From: an uncultured Acidimicrobiaceae bacterium | GTDB taxonomy: Bacteria > Actinomycetota > Acidimicrobiia > Spongiisociales > UBA5794 | Length of the DNA stretch: 64,000 bases | Direction: 5' to 3' | Assembly: GCA_964460075.1 (NCBI GenBank) | Contig: CAYWPC010000006.1 | Span: 8,711 to 72,710, forward strand | Part shown: positions 46,458 through 56,333 of the stretch, piece by piece | How positions within the stretch are numbered: position 1 is the stretch's first letter | Layout: each line of letters begins with the position of its first letter | Notes under the pieces: generated by a model | What the model saw: only the letters and a program-made list of their open reading frames with translations | Databases searched by the model: none | What the model was told of the DNA's origin: nothing | Position numbers and translations under genes: made by a program

Positions 46458-46531
46458 GGGGCTGTAGCTCAGCCTGGCAGAGCACTTGACTGGCAGTCAA
46501 GGGGTCAGGGGTTCGAATCCCCTCAGCTCCA
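46458..46531 (+). tRNA. tRNA-Ala (anticodon GGC). Integration target.
   Basis: Acceptor stem GGGGCTG/CAGCTCC with G3-U70; anticodon loop CTGGCAG; T-arm GGTTCGAATCC. Confidence 0.85.
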
Positions 46532-46556
46532 CGGGAGAGAGAAACGCTGGAACCCT
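46496..46556 (+). repeat. attL-like direct repeat (3' half of tRNA-Ala plus ~25 nt)
   Basis: GTCAAGGGGTCAGGGGTTCGAATCCCCTCAGCTCCACGGGAGAGAGAAACGCTGGAACC recurs at 49371-49430 with about 5 mismatches. Confidence 0.8.
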
Positions 46557-46558
46557 AG

Positions 46559-47460
46559 CCATGGCTGGGGTTTCGGCGCGTCTGGAGGTGATTCGTCGGG
46601 TCGTTCTCAAGGTCGTGTTCGGGTCGAGAGTCCGCGAGGAGTCCGCGGGTCCGCTGGAAGTCTGTGTCGAGGAGGTGGGGAGAGATCGCGCGTCAGGGTG
46701 AGGCGCCGATCGGATCGAGACTCGTCGTAAGGATCCGGCGTTCCAGACCAGGATCCGGTCGATCATCGAACAGAACCAGCGGGTGCTCGAGCGGCTCGCT
46801 GAGTGAGCGTCGCGTACCTCGACCTCGCCGACTTCCCTGTGACCGTCGAGTCCGGAGCGAGACCCGGTACCCAGGGTTCGATTGCACGTGTACGTGCAAT
46901 GTGGCCCACAGATCGGTGCTGCGGGTTGGCGGGTGGTGTTGGTGTACCGGTAGCGTGGCGTTCTTGTCGGGTGCAAGTCTCCATCCGCTGAACGCCCATT
47001 GAAGAACCGTCGTAGTGCTTCGGCCTCTCTCGATGGTGCTTTGGTTGCGCCAACCCCGAAGTGCAGTCACTCGATTCGCGCCGTATCCATTGGATAGGCG
47101 GTCTCCGTTGCACTCCACGCCCATGGGCGTTGTCAAGCCACACGATCGTCTTGCCGCGAGTAACTGGTTGGACGAGGACGCTCACATCGCTCTTACCAAG
47201 ATCGGACGAAGGCTTCGCCCGTCACCACCACTTATCGGTTCAGTCAATCGGCGAGCAAGGCGCGATTGCCGTGGATGCGGCTTCGTGGCTGTCGTCACAC
47301 GATGGCGTCGATAACACTCCAGCATGGAGTCGGTATAGCGACGGTGTCTGAGCGGCTGGGACACGCCGACCTGAACATCACGGTGAAGATCTATCTGAAC
47401 GGATCAGGGGAATCAGATCGCTCCGCCACAGAAACACACGATGCGGCACTCCACAGGTGA
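46559..47460 (+). pseudogene. Tyrosine recombinase (phage-type integrase) remnant, frameshifted
   Basis: Box-II-like LRHTMASITLQHGVGIATVSERLGHADLNITVKIY in one frame at 47266-47460. A box-I-like RLRPSPPLIG lies in another frame. No single intact ORF. The 5' limit is uncertain. Confidence 0.55.
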
Positions 47461-47586
47461 CGGCCGGACGCCTCCCACGGAGGAAACGAAGGGCCAGATC
47501 TATGGGTCGATACGGGCAGGTAGAACCCACTTGGGACTCTTTTAGATTGATGCGGGTGAACGAGAATCACCCGGGATTGATTGTGT

Positions 47587-47721
47587 TCAGTGACCGAACG
47601 TGTTGTCGAGAGACTGGTTGGTGTGCGACGCCTTCTTGGCCTTCTTGGCAAGACGTTTTTCCTTGAGGGTCTTCTCAGCAACCTTCCTTGAACCCTTGCC
47701 ACCCTTGTCCTTGTTCGCCAT
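47587..47721 (-). CDS. Unannotated 44-aa Lys-rich basic protein (MANKDKGGKGSRKVAEKTLKEKRLAKKAKKASHTNQSLDNTFGH)
   Basis: Not in the ORF track (below 60 aa). A strong RBS AGGAGG sits 6 nt before the ATG. Inside the integrated element. Confidence 0.5.
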   Translation of the reverse strand: MANKDKGGKGSRKVAEKTLKEKRLAKKAKKASHTNQSLDNTFGH

Positions 47722-47978
47722 CGGAGCCTCCTGACTGATGACCGGAGTGGTAACCATGGAACCAGTGTCTCACATCACGACAAACCGCGGAGCGAACGCG
47801 TCCCTAACAAGCCCAAACATATGCGTTGTTATGGGTGGGTGTGGACGATATAGATCTGGAGGATGGCGCACGGTGGGGTGGGCGTTACCAGAGTGCAGTA
47901 CGCTGCGAGTGGTGAAACGGGAACATCTAGGTATTGGAGTCTGGCGTGGAAGCTGATCGGGAGAGAGCAGAACGCCAT

Positions 47979-48119
47979 GAGCGGGAGCGTAAGGAAGAAC
48001 ACGAGCGCAGTGAGCAGAGACGTAAGGAAGATCGTGAGCGGGCTGACCAAAGGCGTAAGGAAGAGCGTGAGCGGGCTGACCGTAGGCGTAAGGAAGAGCG
48101 TGAGCGGGAGGGTCATGGT
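47979..48119. repeat. Tandem repeat, 4 x 33 bp (unit ..CGTAAGGAAGAGCGTGAGCGGGCTGACC..)
   Basis: The CGTAAGGAAG phase recurs at 47988, 48021, 48054 and 48087. The period of 33 nt is frame-preserving. The plus frame encodes an RRKEERERAD-type charged repeat. Confidence 0.8.
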
Positions 48120-48206
48120 CGGAGCGGGAGTTAGCTTCGGCTGATCGGTTCCTCACTTCGGCGGGGGGCGCTTCTTGTTTGGCGACATGTACTTGGAGGA
48201 TTCCTG

Positions 48207-48347
48207 ATGAAGTCCAAGCCGATTATCGATGGTGGAAGGCAGCGGTGCGTGGATTGTGGCCACCCTCGCAGGGAGCACAGTGATAATCACAGGTGCACAG
48301 TGCCGAAGTGTGAGTGTCTCGAATACCAATTGCCAGAGGCGAACTGA
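48207..48347 (+). CDS. Unannotated 46-aa zinc-ribbon protein (CxxC...CxxxxCxC)
   Basis: MKSKPIIDGGRQRCVDCGHPRREHSDNHRCTVPKCECLEYQLPEAN. A GGAGGA RBS lies 7 nt upstream. Below the ORF-track size cut-off. Confidence 0.5.
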   Translation: MKSKPIIDGGRQRCVDCGHPRREHSDNHRCTVPKCECLEYQLPEAN

Positions 48348-48462
48348 ACTCTGGACCTGGCTCGCTGAGGCCAGTCTTAACCGGTGACCGGTGTGGTTCG
48401 CCCGGCTTGGCCTGGTCGCTCATAGGTGTCGTTATGGGCGAGCTCCGCAAGAAGGCTTGCTA

Positions 48463-48978
48463 CTAGGAAACGGCGGTCGTCACCGTTACACCAGTCTCCT
48501 CACTGGTTGCATGGCGCCACGAGTCTCCGTTCCATTGGAATTGAACAACAATGAATCGGGCACCATCTCGTGCCGTCACGACCCCTATCGGGACGCCCAC
48601 CACATTGGATGCAAGCTCCTCAATCGGACCTACGTAGAGGATGACACCGTCACTCTCCACCACGCCATCGACAAACAGAGCATCATCTTCGGCAGGGCTG
48701 ACGAACATCGCATTGGGGAATTTGGCTACAACCTCGTTGCGAACCTGCTCAGGCATTGGGAGTTCCTGACCTTCGGGCGTGTCCGAGGTGATGAGTTGCT
48801 TGCGTACGAACATTGGGCGAGCTTGACAATCAGGGCAACCGATTTCGACAGCGTTGACCGACGATGTTGCTCGGGTCGCTCCATCGATTGCCGAAGCCTC
48901 GCTACCCGACCCAGTACAAGCCGCTACAAGGACCGACAAGGCTACGACCGCTGCCAGAATGTGTCGACTCCTCAACAT
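48463..48978 (-). CDS. Hypothetical lipoprotein
   Basis: Signal peptide plus lipobox LVAAC|TGSG. Preferred over the overlapping plus-strand ORF 48391-48990. Confidence 0.5.
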   Translation of the reverse strand: MLRSRHILAAVVALSVLVAACTGSGSEASAIDGATRATSSVNAVEIGCPDCQARPMFVRKQLITSDTPEGQELPMPEQVRNEVVAKFPNAMFVSPAEDDALFVDGVVESDGVILYVGPIEELASNVVGVPIGVVTARDGARFIVVQFQWNGDSWRHATSEETGVTVTTAVS

Positions 48979-49370
48979 ACTGTCTTCTAACGTCGCTGAT
49001 TGGTTTCGTCGTTCGGACGCTCATGCACACTGATCGGTTCCCTCAGCCTACGGCAGCATGCGTGATTCCGACTAGCCCGGCCGCCCAGGTCCGGCAATGT
49101 GGGCGAGTTACGCTTACGGACGTGACCACATGGGTGCCAGCTCGAATGTAGCGCCGAATTCGATGACTCAAGGCTTGCGGGAGTGGTGATCGATATCGTC
49201 GGGCCATGGGTTGTGTGTTCATGGTCGAGACCCCGCTGAGCGCCTTCGGGGTATCTATCCGCAGCAACGGCTCCGTGCGCGCAATGCGCCAAGGGCTATC
49301 GTGCGTGACACGTGTAGGGCTTTGAAACTCTTGCACCGCAAGGGCTATAGAAGACGCGATGTGTCCGGTG

Positions 49371-49430
<60 letters not shown>

Positions 49431-49854
49431 CAGCTTCGAATTTGGAGTCTCGGCTCGCCTGAAGGCGACTCCTGTCTAGCCCTTGAACCCGCCTGGGTCA
49501 TGCCTACCGGCGATGAGGATGGGGACGCGGGTGCAGAGACCGTCGGTGTCATAGTGCAGTGGCGAACTGGTTGCGAAGTGTCTCTGGTCCGATTCGCACC
49601 AGCGCGAAGGTGTCTGTCTGAACACGACAGTCTCCGACGGGAATGGTCCGAGTAGCGCCTTACCGCCTACCACATCGCACGGTGCCAGAGCGCCGTTTCA
49701 TGTGTACCCGAGTAGTCCGTTGGGTGGATTCTGCACCGCACCGACTCGAGTTGGCGGCTGCCGCTCAGATCCGCTGGGGTTTGCTTGACGGCACCATCTG
49801 GTGCGCTCTGGCACGGATGGTGGACGCGGTGTACTGTCGACAACAGGAGGAGCC

Positions 49855-50709: not shown

Positions 50710-52221
50710 TTAGTCGTCTTCGAGTTCGTAGATTCTGTCGATGTAGCGGGTGATCAGTTCCTTCACAGCGGTGCGCGACGGGAAGGTCGCCGCCATCCCG
50801 TACATCGGTGCAGCACCGGTCACGGCCTCACCGCCAGCCGCTCGAGCCTGTGTAACTGCATCGGTGAGATCAGCGAGGAATCGATCGGCAACACCCGGCT
50901 TCGTGTGGCGCAGGGTCACAGCGATGTGCACGGCAGGCGGGTGGTGCAGCCCGTTGAGACTCCACCCCCGCTCGGCCATCCTCGCCATGACCTCATAGAC
51001 GTCTACGTCATCCGATCCAAAGGCGATGACCCACAGCGGATCGCCGAGTACGTGCAACCCTTCGATGTCCCCGATACCGTCTCTGATCTGGGCACCGGTC
51101 GTGAGGATTGCCTCCGTTGCACGCAGATAGCCGTCTTCTCCCATTGAAACCAGGGCGGCCCAGGCGGCAGCGAGAAGGCCTCCTGGGCGGCTTCCCGCAA
51201 GCGTCGGGGAGTAGTAGAGCCCGCCAGGCCATTCGGTAGCAACATGAAACTGGTTCCTGCGAAGGTCCCTTCCGCGGTACAGGACAACAGAAGTCCCTTT
51301 GGCCGCATATCCGTACTTGTGTGTGTCGGCAGACATCGAAGTGACACCTGGCAGTCGGAAATCGAACGGGGCGATGTCATAGCCGAGCCGTTCAGCCCAC
51401 GGCAGCACGAAGCCGCCAAGGCACGCGTCCGTGTGAAATGCAACGCCGCGCTCTCGGGCCATATCGGAGAGTTCAGCAATGGGGTCGATGACACCGTGTG
51501 GGAAGCCAGGTGAGGAACCGGCTACGACAATGGTTCGCCTCGTCATCGCCCTTGCCATCGCATCGACGTCGGCACGAAAATCTCCTCCGACGGGGACACG
51601 CACCTGATCGTATCCGAAATACGCAGCTGCCTTGTCGAAGGCAACGTGGGCTGAGTCTGGCAGCACCATCTGAGGCTTCGAGACGTGAGCGCGGTCCCGA
51701 TACGCCTTCATTGCCATGATGATCGACTCGGTACCCCCCGATGTCACTGTGCCTACGATCTCGTCCCCAGCTTGGGCGGCGACCCGTGCGCCGAGCATCC
51801 CGGCTGTCATGGCAACGACCTCCGCCTCGAACTTCATTCCAGACGGCCACACATCGAGGTGGAGTGGATTCGACTGAGACTGGAGCGCATAGACCCTATT
51901 GAGGAAATCGATGTGTTCGCCGTCGCCGTGATAGACAGCTCCAGAGGCGTAGCCGTCGTTCCAGTCGCCCCTTTCTGCCTCAGCAAGGGCTGAGACGTTG
52001 GCGATGATCTCGTCTCGTGGACGGCCGGTCGCCGGCAGCCGCGAATACACGGGGACGTCGACCTCAGGCCGCACGACAGGCGTGGCGTCGAGCATCGTTT
52101 CATACTCGGCTTCGAGCATCGCGCGAATCTTCGGGACCCTCCCTGCACCGCCTATGAGGGCTGAGGCGACACGACGCGGGAGTTTGTCTATGACTTTCTT
52201 GGCTCGCTCGCTGATGCTCAT
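50710..52221 (-). CDS. PLP-dependent group II decarboxylase family protein (glutamate decarboxylase / sphingosine-1-phosphate-lyase-like)
   Basis: [10 protein letters not shown] and [10 protein letters not shown] (PLP-Lys) motifs. Start chosen at MSISERAKK. Confidence 0.65.
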
Positions 52222-52228
52222 CTGTCTC

Positions 52229-53783
52229 TCATGTGTTGATGCGGCGGTAGATGCCGCGGTTGGCCTTGTGGATCCTGCGGAATGTGTCGTATCGGCTGTC
52301 GTACACGTCTCGATTCGCCGGATTCGGTGAGCGCGAGGCGGCGGTGGGAGCGGTCTCATCGATGTCCTCCCAGGTGATGTGGCCGAGCGCAGCGTGCGCC
52401 AGCATTCCCGCACCCCGCACATTCACCCAGAGCGGCTCGCCGCGTTGGAGGATCGTACGCCCGAGTACATCGGCGTGGATCTGGGCCCATAGGTCCGACT
52501 GGGCGCCACCACCAACCATCGAGATCGGATCCAGGCGTCGCTTCGTGAACCGCTCGACTGTCTCGAGCAGCCAGCGTGTGTTGAACGCGACGCCCTCGAA
52601 TACGGCACGGATCATCGCGTCGCGGCCCGTGTCGAGAGACTGATTGAAGAACCCGCCTCGCAGGCTCGCATCCTCGATGGGTGTGCGTTCGCCGTAGAGC
52701 CACGGCGTGAAGATGACACCGTTGGATCCAGGAGGAACGCCCGCAGCAGCCAGATTGAGATCCGCGTACACCGATTCGTCTCTGCGACGGTCGGGGTAGA
52801 GGATCGACGCGAACCAGTCGATCGCTTTCCCCGCGGTCTCCTGCTCGTTGGCGACGAACCATCGGCCAGGCACGGCAGCTGGGAGGGAAGCTACCGAATG
52901 CAGCAGGTCGGTTTTCTTGTAGGGCACGTGGCAGGTCAGCCACGACGACGTGCCGATGTAGAGATGCGCTGCATAGTCCGCAACGGTTCCTGCTCCAATG
53001 GCTGCAGATGAAACGTCGGGTGTTCCCGCAATGACCGGTGTGCCAGGCGTGAGGCCCAACGCATCGGCTGCTGTCTTCGTGAGGCCACCGATCACTTCGG
53101 TTGCGTGGGCCAACTCGGGGAGTCGGTCGCGGCTCAGGTCCGCATAGCCGAGGAGCGTGTCGTCGTAGGTTACGGAGTCGGGATCTCGGTTGTTGGTGAC
53201 CCAGTGCAGGGCGATCGAGTCGTACGAGGCGACCGCTCTGCCGGTAAGGCGGAGGTTCAGATAGTCCTTCGGTTCGAGGAACTTGTCAGCAGCGAGGTAG
53301 ATGTCGGGTCGTTCGTGTCGCAGGAAGAGAATGTGAGCGATTGGGTCCTTGCCAGAGCCCGATGGTGCGCCACCGGTCGTGTGTATCCATCGACGAATCC
53401 GGAGTGGACCGAAGCCCTCGACTCTGAGAGGTCCAGCCGCTGTGAGACCGTCTAGATACGGCGCACCACGGGAATCCATCCAGATGACCGCATTGCCGAT
53501 CGGTTCTCCGTGCCGATCGACGGCTACGGTGCCTGACCACTGCGACGTGACTGACACCGAGGAAATCTCGATGTGAGTCGATGAGGCGATCGTTCGCCGT
53601 GTCGCCGCTACGATCGCATCCCACCAGGCGTGTGGGTCCTGTTCCGCTCCGCCGTGGCCGTCGAGGAGGAGGTCGACGGATTCGGTAGCCCCTCCAAGGA
53701 TCTCGCCACGATCCGATACGATTGCCACTTTCGGCCCAGATGTGCCGAGGTCGATAGCGAGGACGTGCGTCGGAGGTTCCACG
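52229..53783 (-). CDS. FGGY family carbohydrate kinase
   Basis: N-terminus [15 protein letters not shown]; actin-like ATPase fold. Start approximate (GTG chosen). Confidence 0.65.
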
Positions 53784-53888
53784 ACGACACGATACCTGGG
53801 TCCCCGCAGGTCGACCTTCCCAAACGCAAGATGAACACCGGTGACCCGATCGCAGCTGCGCTGGTGCAATGTTGCAGTCAAGCACCGG

Positions 53889-56333
53889 CTAGGGGGACCA
53901 CCAGAGGCCAACGCCGAGGGTTATCGCGGTGATCAATACGCCAATGACTGTCCAGAAGTACACGGTGTGGCCATCGATACGGATAGAGAGCAGGTTCGCG
54001 CCGCTGGTCGTGTACGCAGCGTCTCGTCCAACCTCTCGCGTGTTGCTCGAACCCTGTCTGTGACTGTCTTGTGTGATGGACTCGTATCGGGTGTTGAGCG
54101 ACTCTCGTCGTATGAGTTGGCCGCCGAACGAGTTGGCCAGAACTGCGGTGACAGACGAGATCATGGCGATCATCGCCCACACCGGGCTGATGAGCCCTGT
54201 GACTGCTGCGAAAACTCCGATGCCGTTGAAGCTGAACGCGAGTACGAGGTTCTGCTTAGTTTTGCGGTACGAGGAGATACCGATCTCATGGGCATCCATC
54301 ACGGATCCAAGCCGGTCGCTCATGATGACGATGTCGGCGGATTCGATAGCGATGTCCGTACCGGCACCGATAGCGACACCGATGTCGGCCTGGGTGAGCG
54401 CCGGGGCGTCGTTGATACCGTCGCCGACCATCATGACGCGTGAACCGTGGCGTTGCAGCCTCCGGATCTCAGCGGCTTTCTCGTCGGGGAGTACCTCAGC
54501 GAGCACATCGCCGATCCCCACCATCGCGGCGATCGTGTGTGCGGTGCGTGGGTTGTCGCCGGTGACCATCACAGGGACGATGCCTGCGGACTTGATCCGT
54601 GCAATGGCTGCTGCCGCGTCGTCTTTGACGGTGTCGGCAATTCCGATGAGCCCAACGAGGATTCCGTCGCGGGACACTGCAATGACAGTTTCGCCCTGCT
54701 CTTCGAGCTTTCGCCTGTTGGTGTCGAGTGGCGACAGGTCGATGCCCTGTTCGACCAACCAATTCGGTTTGCCGACGAGCACGCGGGCCCCGTCGAGATT
54801 GGCCTCGACCCCGCGTCCCGTGTGCGACTCGAACGTGCCGGCTTCGACGAGGGACAGCTTTCGTGACTCGGCTGCGTCTTCCACCGCACGGGCGAGGGGA
54901 TGCTCGCTGTTCATCTCGGCTGCGGCTGCAACAGCAAGCAGAACATCGGCCGACACGTCGCCGGTTGTGACTACCGTCTGGACGGTCGGCTCGCCCCTGG
55001 TGATCGTGCCGGTCTTGTCGAACACCACAGTGGTGACGTCCCCCATGACCTGGAACGCCTCGCCTGAGCGCATCAAGATCCCCCGCTGGGCGGCTTCGCC
55101 CCCACCTCGGATAGTGGCCAACGGTGTTGCCATGCCCAACGCACACGGGTACCCCATGACGAGTGTTGCGAGTCCTGCTAGGAGCGCACGGTTCCAATTC
55201 GGACCGTCCCCGAGAAGTGTCGGCGCAATGGTCCACAGCAGAAATCCGCTGGCGGCGAAGACGAGCACGGTGGGCGCGAAGTAGCGAAGCACGACATCGA
55301 CGACCTGGAGCACGCCGGGCCTGAGGCTTCGAGCTTCATCGATCGACCGGGCGATTTGGGACAGAAATGCGTCGTCGCCGATGCGGGTCACCTCGACGAC
55401 TAGCGTGCCGGTCTGGTTGATCGACCCTCCGATCACGTCGTCACCGGACACCTTCTCTGCAGGGATCGACTCGCCGGTCACGAGCGCCTCATTCACCGCA
55501 GACACACCATCGACGACAGTTCCGTCCACCGGGATCGACTCGCCCGGCCGGATACGGACCAGGTCTCCTGAAAGGACATCGTCGATCGGTGTGTCGACCT
55601 CCTTGCCATCGCGCACCACGCGGGCCGTGTCCGGGCGTAGATCCATCAGCCGTCGCACGGCCTGGGACGACCGGGTACGCACAACGAGCGACGAATAGTG
55701 GGACAAGATGTGATAGGTGGTCACGAGGGTTGCTGCCGCGAAGAAGTCACCGACGGGAAAGTTGTCCAAGACGAACAAGCCGAGGAAGCCTCCGGCAATC
55801 CCTGCGAACGCCGCAGACTCCAACAGCACATGCTGATTGAGTATGCCTCGCCGCAGTGACGCCCATGCCATCTTCTTGATGAACCAGCCGGTGAGGAACA
55901 TCGTGTTCAACGCGAATGCCAACAACAGCCACGGCATCAGGGGGACAGCAACGATGTCGAGCCACTGCCCGACGAGCATCAGGAGCAGGCTCGCCACTGT
56001 GAGGCTGCCTGCAACGACGAGCCGGCCTCGTTCCCGTCGAAGCTCCGCCGCGTCGTCGTCGAAGCTCCGCAGTTTCTCAGGATCTCTGTAGGTGTAGCCC
56101 ATTTCCTCGAGGGTCCGTCGCAGCTTCTCCGGCGTCACCTTGGATGGGTCATACCTGACCAGGCCCTCCTCGTGGGCAAGCGACACACCCACCTCGTGCA
56201 CTCCGTCGATTCGTCCGTAGGCCTTGTCGATCGTCGATGTACAGAACGAGCAGGACATGCCACCAATTTTCATCCGGAACGTAGCTTGACCCGCTTGAGC
56301 AGTCGCATTCGCTGCTGCATTGTCGCTCGCCAT
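53889..56333 (-). CDS. Heavy-metal translocating P1B-type ATPase (probably copper)
   Basis: N-terminal HMA domain GMSCSFC. DKTGTIT phosphorylation site and GDGINDAP. The TM6 motif is YPC rather than the canonical CPC. Confidence 0.85.
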   Translation of the reverse strand: MASDNAAANATAQAGQATFRMKIGGMSCSFCTSTIDKAYGRIDGVHEVGVSLAHEEGLVRYDPSKVTPEKLRRTLEEMGYTYRDPEKLRSFDDDAAELRRERGRLVVAGSLTVASLLLMLVGQWLDIVAVPLMPWLLLAFALNTMFLTGWFIKKMAWASLRRGILNQHVLLESAAFAGIAGGFLGLFVLDNFPVGDFFAAATLVTTYHILSHYSSLVVRTRSSQAVRRLMDLRPDTARVVRDGKEVDTPIDDVLSGDLVRIRPGESIPVDGTVVDGVSAVNEALVTGESIPAEKVSGDDVIGGSINQTGTLVVEVTRIGDDAFLSQIARSIDEARSLRPGVLQVVDVVLRYFAPTVLVFAASGFLLWTIAPTLLGDGPNWNRALLAGLATLVMGYPCALGMATPLATIRGGGEAAQRGILMRSGEAFQVMGDVTTVVFDKTGTITRGEPTVQTVVTTGDVSADVLLAVAAAAEMNSEHPLARAVEDAAESRKLSLVEAGTFESHTGRGVEANLDGARVLVGKPNWLVEQGIDLSPLDTNRRKLEEQGETVIAVSRDGILVGLIGIADTVKDDAAAAIARIKSAGIVPVMVTGDNPRTAHTIAAMVGIGDVLAEVLPDEKAAEIRRLQRHGSRVMMVGDGINDAPALTQADIGVAIGAGTDIAIESADIVIMSDRLGSVMDAHEIGISSYRKTKQNLVLAFSFNGIGVFAAVTGLISPVWAMIAMISSVTAVLANSFGGQLIRRESLNTRYESITQDSHRQGSSNTREVGRDAAYTTSGANLLSIRIDGHTVYFWTVIGVLITAITLGVGLWWSP

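Follow-up and report, generated by a model that had tools for sequence, protein, structure and literature searches.

Conserved micro-protein genes in repeat-bounded units of an uncultured acidimicrobial genome: putative mobile cassettes with a possible link to RNA-binding proteins

A 64,000-nucleotide stretch of the genome of an uncultured Acidimicrobiaceae bacterium (assembly GCA_964460075.1, contig CAYWPC010000006.1, positions 8,711 to 72,710 of the forward strand; hereafter, the window) carries two short open reading frames, ORF1 and ORF2, that a preliminary description made from the sequence alone had picked out as likely genes. Comparison with related loci indicates that both are almost certainly real, translated genes belonging to two unannotated micro-protein families. 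They lie on either side of a third small gene, RE-ORF, within units bounded by copies of a short conserved repeat. The best overall explanation, and probably the correct one, is that the products of all three genes are small RNA- or ribosome-associated accessory factors, rather than proteins that run a mobile element, and that the genes travel on repeat-bounded cassettes.

ORF1 occupies positions 47721..47587 on the minus strand and encodes, from an ATG start, a lysine-rich protein of 44 amino acids (aa; MANKDKGGKGSRKVAEKTLKEKRLAKKAKKASHTNQSLDNTFGH). The frame and peptide are as first described, but the AGGAGG ribosome-binding site (RBS; 47732..47727) lies 5 nt before the ATG rather than 6 nt. 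ORF2, on the plus strand at 48207..48347, also starts with ATG and encodes a 46-aa Cys/His micro-protein with cysteines at positions 14, 17, 30, 35 and 37, again as described; its GGAGGA RBS (48195-48200) is 6 nt before the start codon and not 7 nt. Taken by itself, this RBS-plus-ORF pattern is within chance expectation and statistically unremarkable: the 64-kb window contains five ATG-initiated ORFs of 40-60 aa with a Shine–Dalgarno-like pentamer, where second-order Markov simulations predict 3.85 ± 2.1, and the other three of the five resemble out-of-frame junk. The case for ORF1 and ORF2 being genes therefore rests on comparison with other sequences. The preliminary description also held that neither ORF would be called by standard filters. 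This is true of ORF2, which is omitted from the public annotation of the source contig (L167; here and below, L numbers denote individual loci), but not of ORF1, whose exact sequence is a called gene there. In the same annotation RE-ORF is mis-framed.

Many related loci were recovered for both peptides. ORF1 relatives fall into 47 protein clusters at 64-95% identity and, in a pattern scan, into at least 65 species-level genomes whose labels are almost all Acidimicrobiia, Actinomycetes or Actinomycetota; judged by these sequences, the family is widespread in Acidimicrobiia and other Actinomycetota. For ORF2, 13 protein clusters at 60-87% identity and 102 metagenome loci were found, 80 of the latter being kept. 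An exhaustive profile search of 1.84 billion protein representatives returned only 73 clusters at E<=1e-3, so far as such a search can tell a small and specific family. These clusters are mostly 46-65 aa in length, the longer ones being over-extended ORF calls or tandem two-domain proteins; the idea that the longer matches are fusions to an RNA recognition motif (RRM) was rejected in favour of over-extended calls. Practically every ORF1 relative, and the closer relatives of ORF2, keep the ATG and a GGAGG-type RBS. An alternative ORF1 start at an upstream ATG (47757), which would give a 56-aa protein, was rejected: this codon is ACG in relatives, which places the start at 47721. In pooled pairwise comparisons the ratio of non-synonymous to synonymous differences (pN/pS) is 0.32 for ORF1 and 0.28 for ORF2, values biased downwards by the choice of loci on peptide similarity, and third codon positions vary most. 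GC content at third positions (0.73 in ORF1, 0.64 in ORF2) is in keeping with that of the neighbouring host genes (0.63-0.75). The earlier view of both ORFs as genuine genes is thus borne out by their conservation, by pN/pS values of about 0.3 and by the conserved starts and RBSs.

RE-ORF, named for its Arg/Glu-rich 62-aa product, is located between the two on the plus strand (47946..48134), with a GTG start, although a TTG at 47934 is also possible. Its frame is open in all 11 loci compared and has a pN/pS of 0.37, whereas the other frames over this region give values of 1.0-1.4 and contain stops in relatives. The latter include the frame chosen in the public annotation, a 93-aa ORF at 47863-48144 with a pN/pS of 1.4 and stops in relatives. 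By this comparative measure RE-ORF is a third real gene, wrongly framed in the public record. It contains a 33-nt (11-codon) tandem repeat (47987-48108, 3.7 copies), the copy number of which differs between relatives by complete units of 33 nt, so that the predicted charged helix changes length without loss of frame. No significant match to the RE-ORF protein was found in Pfam, NCBIfam, PHROGs or PADLOC. The 72-nt spacer that separates RE-ORF from ORF2 includes a terminator-like hairpin and T-run (48148..48179, plus strand) with only a weak match to the consensus, and its fold is not unusually stable (z=+1.08). The preliminary description overlooked this third gene, together with the repeat-bounded cassette around each gene. 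In one related protein, P0062, the RE-ORF, spacer and ORF2 sequences are fused in frame and Ser takes the place of C30; this may be a frameshifted or degenerate copy.

The ORF2 protein is predicted with good confidence to bind metal. In a 14-member alignment C14, C17, G18, H19, P20, H24, C30, T31, V32, P33, C35 and C37 are invariant, E23 and Y40 are nearly invariant across a wider set, and the pattern C..CGH....H...C....C.C is present in all of the ~69 relatives inspected. The candidate ligand set, C-x2-C-G-H-x4-H...C-x4-C-x-C, comprises five cysteines and two histidines. An AlphaFold2 model is compact and of knuckle type, with a predicted local distance difference test score (pLDDT) of 71, but has no match among solved folds, and searches of curated families (Pfam, NCBIfam) and PDB sequence profiles gave nothing significant. 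Of the original designation as a zinc ribbon, metal binding is very likely, given the invariant Cys and His residues, whilst a recognisable zinc-ribbon fold or family is not seen. In two relatives (P0126 and P0129) the Cys/His unit occurs twice in tandem, which suggests that it folds independently.

The most informative evidence on function comes from the genes that accompany ORF2. Across 83 loci, the gene directly upstream on the same strand encodes an RRM protein in 41, an RE-rich protein in 26 (the window among them), an ORF1 relative in one and some other protein in 11, the remaining four being cut off. The RRM partner is an 81-90-aa protein with a single RRM (PF00076), and in 20 of 21 distinct RRM-type loci its stop codon overlaps the ORF2 start (NTGA, for example ATGA, or TGATG), implying that ORF2 is translationally coupled to the RRM gene. 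Both types of partner are found together in L166 (602-1586, minus strand), where five small genes with overlapping stops and starts encode, in order, an 81-aa RRM protein (Pfam RRM_1, PF00076, E=3e-21), a C2H2-like zinc protein (60 aa, basic tail), an 80-aa product that matches DUF6897 weakly, a 75-aa RE-rich protein and an ORF2 relative 87% identical to that in the window. Because L166 joins the RRM and RE-rich partners in one operon, the window, which itself has no RRM gene, would appear to carry the distal half (RE-ORF and ORF2) of an RRM operon. A further arrangement is seen in L151 (4000-5641, plus strand) and also in L150 and L152, with co-directional genes for a DUF1059 protein (55 aa), an RRM protein (84 aa), ORF2 (46 aa), a 97-aa protein and an ORF1-like 41-aa protein. 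ORF2 is the last gene of a small operon headed by an RRM RNA-binding protein, and we propose that its product would act as a zinc-dependent, stoichiometric partner of the protein encoded just upstream: the RRM protein elsewhere, the putative Arg/Glu-rich helix here.

ORF1 is, as the preliminary description stated, a basic, lysine-rich peptide for which nucleic-acid binding is plausible. The family core, MANKDKGG[KR]S.KK.A.K.LK[EQ]KR..K..K, spans ~31 aa, and the tail HTNQSLDNTFGH characterises the subfamily to which the window's ORF1 belongs. AlphaFold2 models residues 1-18 as disordered and 19-42 as a basic helix (pLDDT 67); most likely, the peptide folds on RNA or ribosomes. Searches of Pfam, NCBIfam, PHROGs, PADLOC and PDB sequence profiles gave nothing significant and a literature search on the ORF1 motif found no paper. 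A relationship to SERF/4F5-like proteins was considered and rejected: hhalign of the ORF1 family alignment against human SERF2 gave a probability of 0.1% and there is no Pfam match. Many ORF1 relatives are just 31-33 aa long (clusters P0035-P0037, P0041 and P0044-P0046). In L009 (1248-1382) an in-frame TAG is found at ORF1 codon 32 with the downstream HTNESFDNAFGH frame intact, possibly a recent truncation or a case of read-through. ORF1 also keeps company with genes for RNA-binding proteins, as in L032, L035, L053 and L069, where it follows an RRM gene at a distance of 170-450 nt, and in L159 (1265-1734) the ORF1 cassette adjoins one with a 67-aa cold-shock-domain protein, another small RNA-binding cargo gene. 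ORF1 and ORF2 are not an invariable adjacent pair, a possibility that was rejected since they are within 5 kb of one another in four lineages only: the window (divergent, 486 nt), L004 (tandem, 9 nt), L001 (4.6 kb apart) and L150-152 (in the order RRM, ORF2, 97-aa gene, ORF1-like gene). Grouping the genes around ORF1 by simple ORF clustering gave too much noise, the DNA being rich in GC.

The units that contain these genes are delimited by a conserved polar 22-nt motif, CATAKGTGCCGWTATGGGCGG, which is found at both ends of the RE+ORF2 unit. The consensus core over 47 unique copies is CATAtGTGCCGaTATGgGcGG. Most copies are of this short form (21-26 nt) and ~12 are doubled into hairpins of 62-77 nt, with a left arm (CCGCCCATATCCGGCAATATG), a spacer of 17-29 nt and a right arm. 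These long forms are 84% paired, compared with 20-50% in slid controls. Within the window the repeat is confined to 47486-49150, where four copies, including two degenerate ones identified by eye, are found in 1.7 kb and, in the order C, A, B, D, delimit three cassettes. Copy C (47486..47507, plus strand, degenerate) reads TCTATGGGTCGATACGGGCAGG and is followed by TAGAACCCACTTGGGA, as in other ORF1 cassettes. The 332-bp ORF1 cassette (47508..47839, minus strand; blastn homology limits 47508-47838) consists of the gene with ~115 nt of conserved sequence 5′ and ~80 nt 3′ of it, and ends in copy A (47818..47839, plus strand, CATATGCGTTGTTATGGGTGGG). The RE+ORF2 cassette, ~600 bp on the plus strand (47840..48442), ends in copy B (48421..48442, plus strand, CATAGGTGTCGTTATGGGCGAG); its blastn homology to L070 (90%), L072 and L076-79 has limits of 47828/37-48440. 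The third cassette carries a 171-aa lipoprotein-like ORF (48463..48978, minus strand; signal ...LVAAC), which has no significant match in Pfam, NCBIfam, PHROGs or PADLOC and is shortened to 97 aa in the public annotation. Beyond it is copy D (~49079..49150, plus strand), a degenerate long form with left arm CCGCCCAGGTCCGGCAATGTG, a spacer and a right-arm remnant, which was read by eye against the long-form consensus and was not picked up in an nhmmer scan.

The same units recur elsewhere in other company. An ORF1 unit of 318-332 bp is found between two repeat copies in the window, L153/L166, L156, L159, L009, L005, L160, L161 and L165, and multiple alignment of eight contexts shows unrelated outer neighbours, with homology stopping at the repeats. 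The RE+ORF2 cassette likewise has unrelated flanks in eight loci, so that at least eight contexts are known for each. A neighbouring 1.1-kb unit is downstream of RE+ORF2 in L072 and L095 and upstream in L088, as would be expected if cassettes reshuffle. In all multi-copy loci, adjacent repeats are co-oriented (32/32 pairs), with a median spacing of 875 nt. One array, in L156, has 11-12 repeats in 12.8 kb and ~11 cassettes, usually with one called gene per interval (range one to three); its cargo includes a 459-aa protein, ydhR, MerB, an aminotransferase, a 46-aa membrane peptide, an aldo-keto reductase, a cupin/SBP gene, ORF1, DUF1254 and SnoaL. No match to the repeat was found in phage, plasmid and viral-contig collections. 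From these comparisons it seems likely that the gene units are repeat-bounded mobile cassettes that recur in unrelated neighbourhoods of uncultured Actinomycetota. A site-specific recombinase, probably a tyrosine recombinase resembling the decayed one found at 47135-47460, would excise the cassettes and reinsert them at the repeats.

The cassettes of the window sit in a larger, degraded element. A tRNA-Ala (GGC) gene (46458..46532, plus strand; ARAGORN, Rfam tRNA 67.4 bits), the integration target, overlaps an attL-like 73-nt direct repeat (46487..46559, plus strand) made up of the tRNA 3′ half and a further 27 nt, and an attR-like copy of the tRNA-Ala 3′ end (49362..49434, plus strand) marks the other end. 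The two 73-nt repeats are 86% identical, are spaced by 2875 nt and bound an islet of 2.9 kb. Inside is a tyrosine-recombinase gene (47135..47460, plus strand), which a three-frame reading shows to be frameshifted and internally deleted. The C-terminal fragment (47266-47460) retains an RHT...LGH...Y box (PF00589 positions 132-167, E=1.7e-6, 28.3 bits), and the segment joining the VPL-like strand to the HxxR box has lost ~30-50 aa. Given this damage, the islet can no longer move by itself. No relatives of the remnant were retrieved, it being too decayed. Having a tRNA gene whose 3′ end is directly repeated and, next to it, a tyrosine integrase, albeit a decayed one, the region has the features of a tRNA-targeted islet, and the original placement of both ORFs inside an integrated element is correct; 47486-49150 may thus be viewed as a three-cassette mini-array on a degraded tRNA-Ala islet. 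That ORF1 and ORF2 relatives generally occupy tRNA-integrated elements was considered and rejected, as almost none of ~120 related loci has a tRNA nearby. Rfam searches of the window, at gathering and E-value thresholds, found tRNAs only. In a related metagenome-assembled genome, L008 (779-4117) is syntenic with window positions 50710-53911, having the two genes found to the right of the islet and, immediately after them, an ORF1-family gene that lacks the repeat, the islet and the SDR (short-chain dehydrogenase/reductase) gene, from which it follows that non-cassette chromosomal copies of the ORF1 family also exist.

How well does this account stand up against others? The possibility that ORF1, ORF2 or both are open merely by chance, in DNA conserved as a non-coding RNA or regulatory element, gains something from the ~4 RBS-plus-ORF patterns that chance alone would place in such a window. 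It is at odds, however, with pN/pS values of ~0.3 and third-position variation, with the invariance of Cys and His in ORF2, with starts and RBSs conserved over relatives of 60-95% identity, with the lack of an Rfam match and with start/stop overlaps that point to translational coupling to upstream genes; we put its probability close to nil and consider it effectively refuted already. The cassette interpretation has more to answer. Several observations count against it or against the wider account: covariation in the long-form hairpins is not above that in shuffles, gene orientation within arrays is mixed, a regular-expression scan for the box-II motif revealed no recombinase in any fetched locus, no intact one was found beside any array, and the window recombinase may serve the tRNA islet only. 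To these must be added the bias in pN/pS already mentioned, the moderate AlphaFold2 confidence for ORF1 and ORF2 and the lack of a family, solved structure or fold match for the ORF1, ORF2 or RE-ORF proteins. The want of covariation, the mixed orientation and the lack of a recombinase beside the arrays would all suit a repeat of the repetitive extragenic palindrome (REP) or REPIN (REP doublet forming a hairpin) type, or a shared operator or terminator, the genes being real and their contexts shuffled by ordinary homologous recombination from repeat to repeat in a variable part of the chromosome. So would the short palindrome itself, which like REP/REPIN elements occurs both singly and in inverted pairs of 62-77 nt, and the presence in L166 of two further co-oriented copies 6.5 kb past the dense array. 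What such a reading does not anticipate is the extreme clustering (the four copies of the window fall within 1.7 kb out of 64 kb, and L156 has 12 in a stretch of 12.8 kb), the co-orientation of every adjacent pair, the usual single gene per interval, the end of homology between identical cassettes at the repeat and the tyrosine-recombinase remnant that abuts the window array. We regard it as unlikely, if well short of negligible, and prefer site-specific mobility.

With regard to function, an RNA-related role for the products is, in our estimation, an even bet. The recurrent partners of ORF1 and ORF2 are the RRM gene, a cold-shock-domain gene and the Arg/Glu-rich protein. Weighing on the other side, all of the support for this role comes from gene neighbourhood, and most of the 65 ORF1 genome loci have neither the repeat nor an RRM neighbour, making the link to RNA-binding genes weaker for ORF1 than for ORF2. 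The preliminary description had instead suggested regulators, anti-defence factors or toxin partners, that is, peptides that serve the integrated element. Their position between duplicated tRNA-Ala ends beside an integrase remnant would fit, and small basic and zinc-ribbon proteins do have such roles in other elements, but nothing was found in favour of the suggestion: there is no PADLOC defence match, PHROGs gave marginal matches only (E>=0.002, function unassigned), no relatives of either ORF were present in 50,697 phage records, 72,556 plasmids or viral contigs, related loci almost never have a tRNA or, by the box-II motif scan, a recombinase, no toxin-like partner is present and the consistent partners are RRM and RE-rich genes. 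A service role of this kind is accordingly very improbable. Slightly more credible, yet still improbable, is that ORF1 and ORF2 act on DNA or transcription, as a zinc-finger and basic protein pair tuning promoters in the manner of Brz and Brb of Halobacterium, which are co-transcribed and cooperate in bop activation (PMC2253796, PMC3184054). The tandem ORF1 and ORF2 genes of L004, 9 nt apart, are reminiscent of this, but ORF2 is coupled in translation chiefly to an RRM protein and not to a transcription factor, neither protein has sequence similarity to Brz or Brb, and no conserved helix-turn-helix neighbour is found. An association with RNA or ribosomes is therefore the functional reading that we favour.

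Three micro-protein families (ORF1, ORF2 and RE-ORF) absent from curated libraries are added by this analysis; in the contig's public annotation one of the three micro-proteins is wrongly called and another is absent. The tight translational link between bacterial RRM proteins and a Cys/His micro-protein offers a concrete handle on the poorly understood function of the former. The repeat-bounded cassettes, for their part, suggest site-specific gene shuffling in Actinomycetota, a phylum with essentially no integrons in surveys, and, if a recombinase does act on the repeat, would mean that cassette-based genome plasticity reaches a new lineage and uses a new type of site.

Amongst described small proteins, close parallels are found in haloarchaea. 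In Halobacterium salinarum the small zinc-finger protein Brz and the small basic protein Brb are co-transcribed and jointly activate bop transcription (PMC2253796, PMC3184054). Like these and the haloarchaeal CPxCG proteins, ORF2 is a stand-alone zinc-finger candidate of <70 aa, with a CxxCG knuckle, encoded with a small basic protein. The differences are considerable: no sequence relationship is detectable, the organisms belong to different domains of life, the Cys/His pattern (C-x2-C-G-H-x4-H...C-x4-C-x-C) is distinct, and the partners are RNA-binding genes rather than transcription factors. On the RRM side, the upstream partner of ORF2 resembles the cyanobacterial Rbp proteins in having a single RRM. 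Certain rbp genes share a transcript with the gene of a small basic ribosomal protein. Cyanobacterial Rbp3 is reported to associate with ribosomes and mRNA 3′ ends (PMC12232666). The window differs in having only the distal RE+ORF2 half, with no RRM gene, and we found no zinc micro-protein partner described in the literature for bacterial single-RRM or Rbp proteins.

For the repeat, three kinds of element invite comparison, a lox/dif-like double-stranded core site and a REP/REPIN element being plausible alternatives to an integron-like reading. As in lox, FRT and dif sites, inverted arms (CCCATA / TATGGG, extendable to ~10 nt) surround a conserved asymmetric centre of ~8 nt (TGTGCCGW), the asymmetry of which gives the site its polarity. 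The arms share GCGCATA...TTATG with E. coli dif. Gene modules flanked by short recombinase sites are familiar from the pdif modules of Acinetobacter plasmids, although there the sites alternate in orientation whereas here they are co-oriented. The left arm here is also far less conserved than the right, and the cognate recombinase is putative. The resemblance to REP/REPIN elements lies in short, imperfect, intergenic palindromes found as singlets and inverted doublets; unlike these, which are scattered through a genome in their hundreds and accompanied by a RAYT transposase, the copies in the 64-kb window are not dispersed but confined to 47486-49150.

The third comparison is with integrons and with clusters of attC sites lacking integron-integrases (CALIN). 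IntegronFinder surveys have found no complete integrons and few CALIN in Actinobacteria (PMC9024848, PMC4889954), and our literature searches combining integrons with Acidimicrobiia and REPIN with Actinobacteria found no paper. The repeat is not a canonical attC, a candidacy rejected since GTT is not conserved: the GTT/AAC triplet occurs in about a third of copies and GAT in about half, core position 12 being A in 25, T in 15, C in four and G in three of the 47 unique copies, with the left arm co-varying as ATC/AAC. Most copies, moreover, are 21-26-nt cores, as opposed to full attC hairpins of 57-141 nt, genes face both ways within arrays, and no IntI was found in the fetched loci by the box-II motif scan; the window recombinase retains a C-terminus only, the region in which an IntI insert would lie being deleted. 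The likenesses are nonetheless extensive. The 62-77-nt repeats are predicted to fold in an attC-like way into an outer stem, internal loop, inner stem with one bulged base and variable loop; co-oriented structured repeats are spaced 0.3-2.6 kb apart with one small accessory gene each; an identical cassette is found in different arrays; the cargo (glyoxalase, MerB, acetyltransferase, SnoaL and many tiny unassigned ORFs) is typical; and a tyrosine-recombinase remnant is found beside the window array. Taken together, these comparisons allow the tentative suggestion, with the odds somewhat against it, that uncultured marine and sediment Actinomycetota have a native integron-like cassette system with a non-canonical polar core site (CATAKGTGCCGWTATGGGCGG), sometimes forming an attC-like hairpin, and a putative recombinase, the cargo of which includes a new RNA-binding module that couples translation of a Cys5His2 zinc micro-protein to that of an RRM or Arg/Glu-rich protein. 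As in known cassette arrays, the sites are co-oriented and the intervals usually hold single ORFs, some cassettes, such as that of ORF1, carrying their own 5′ region.

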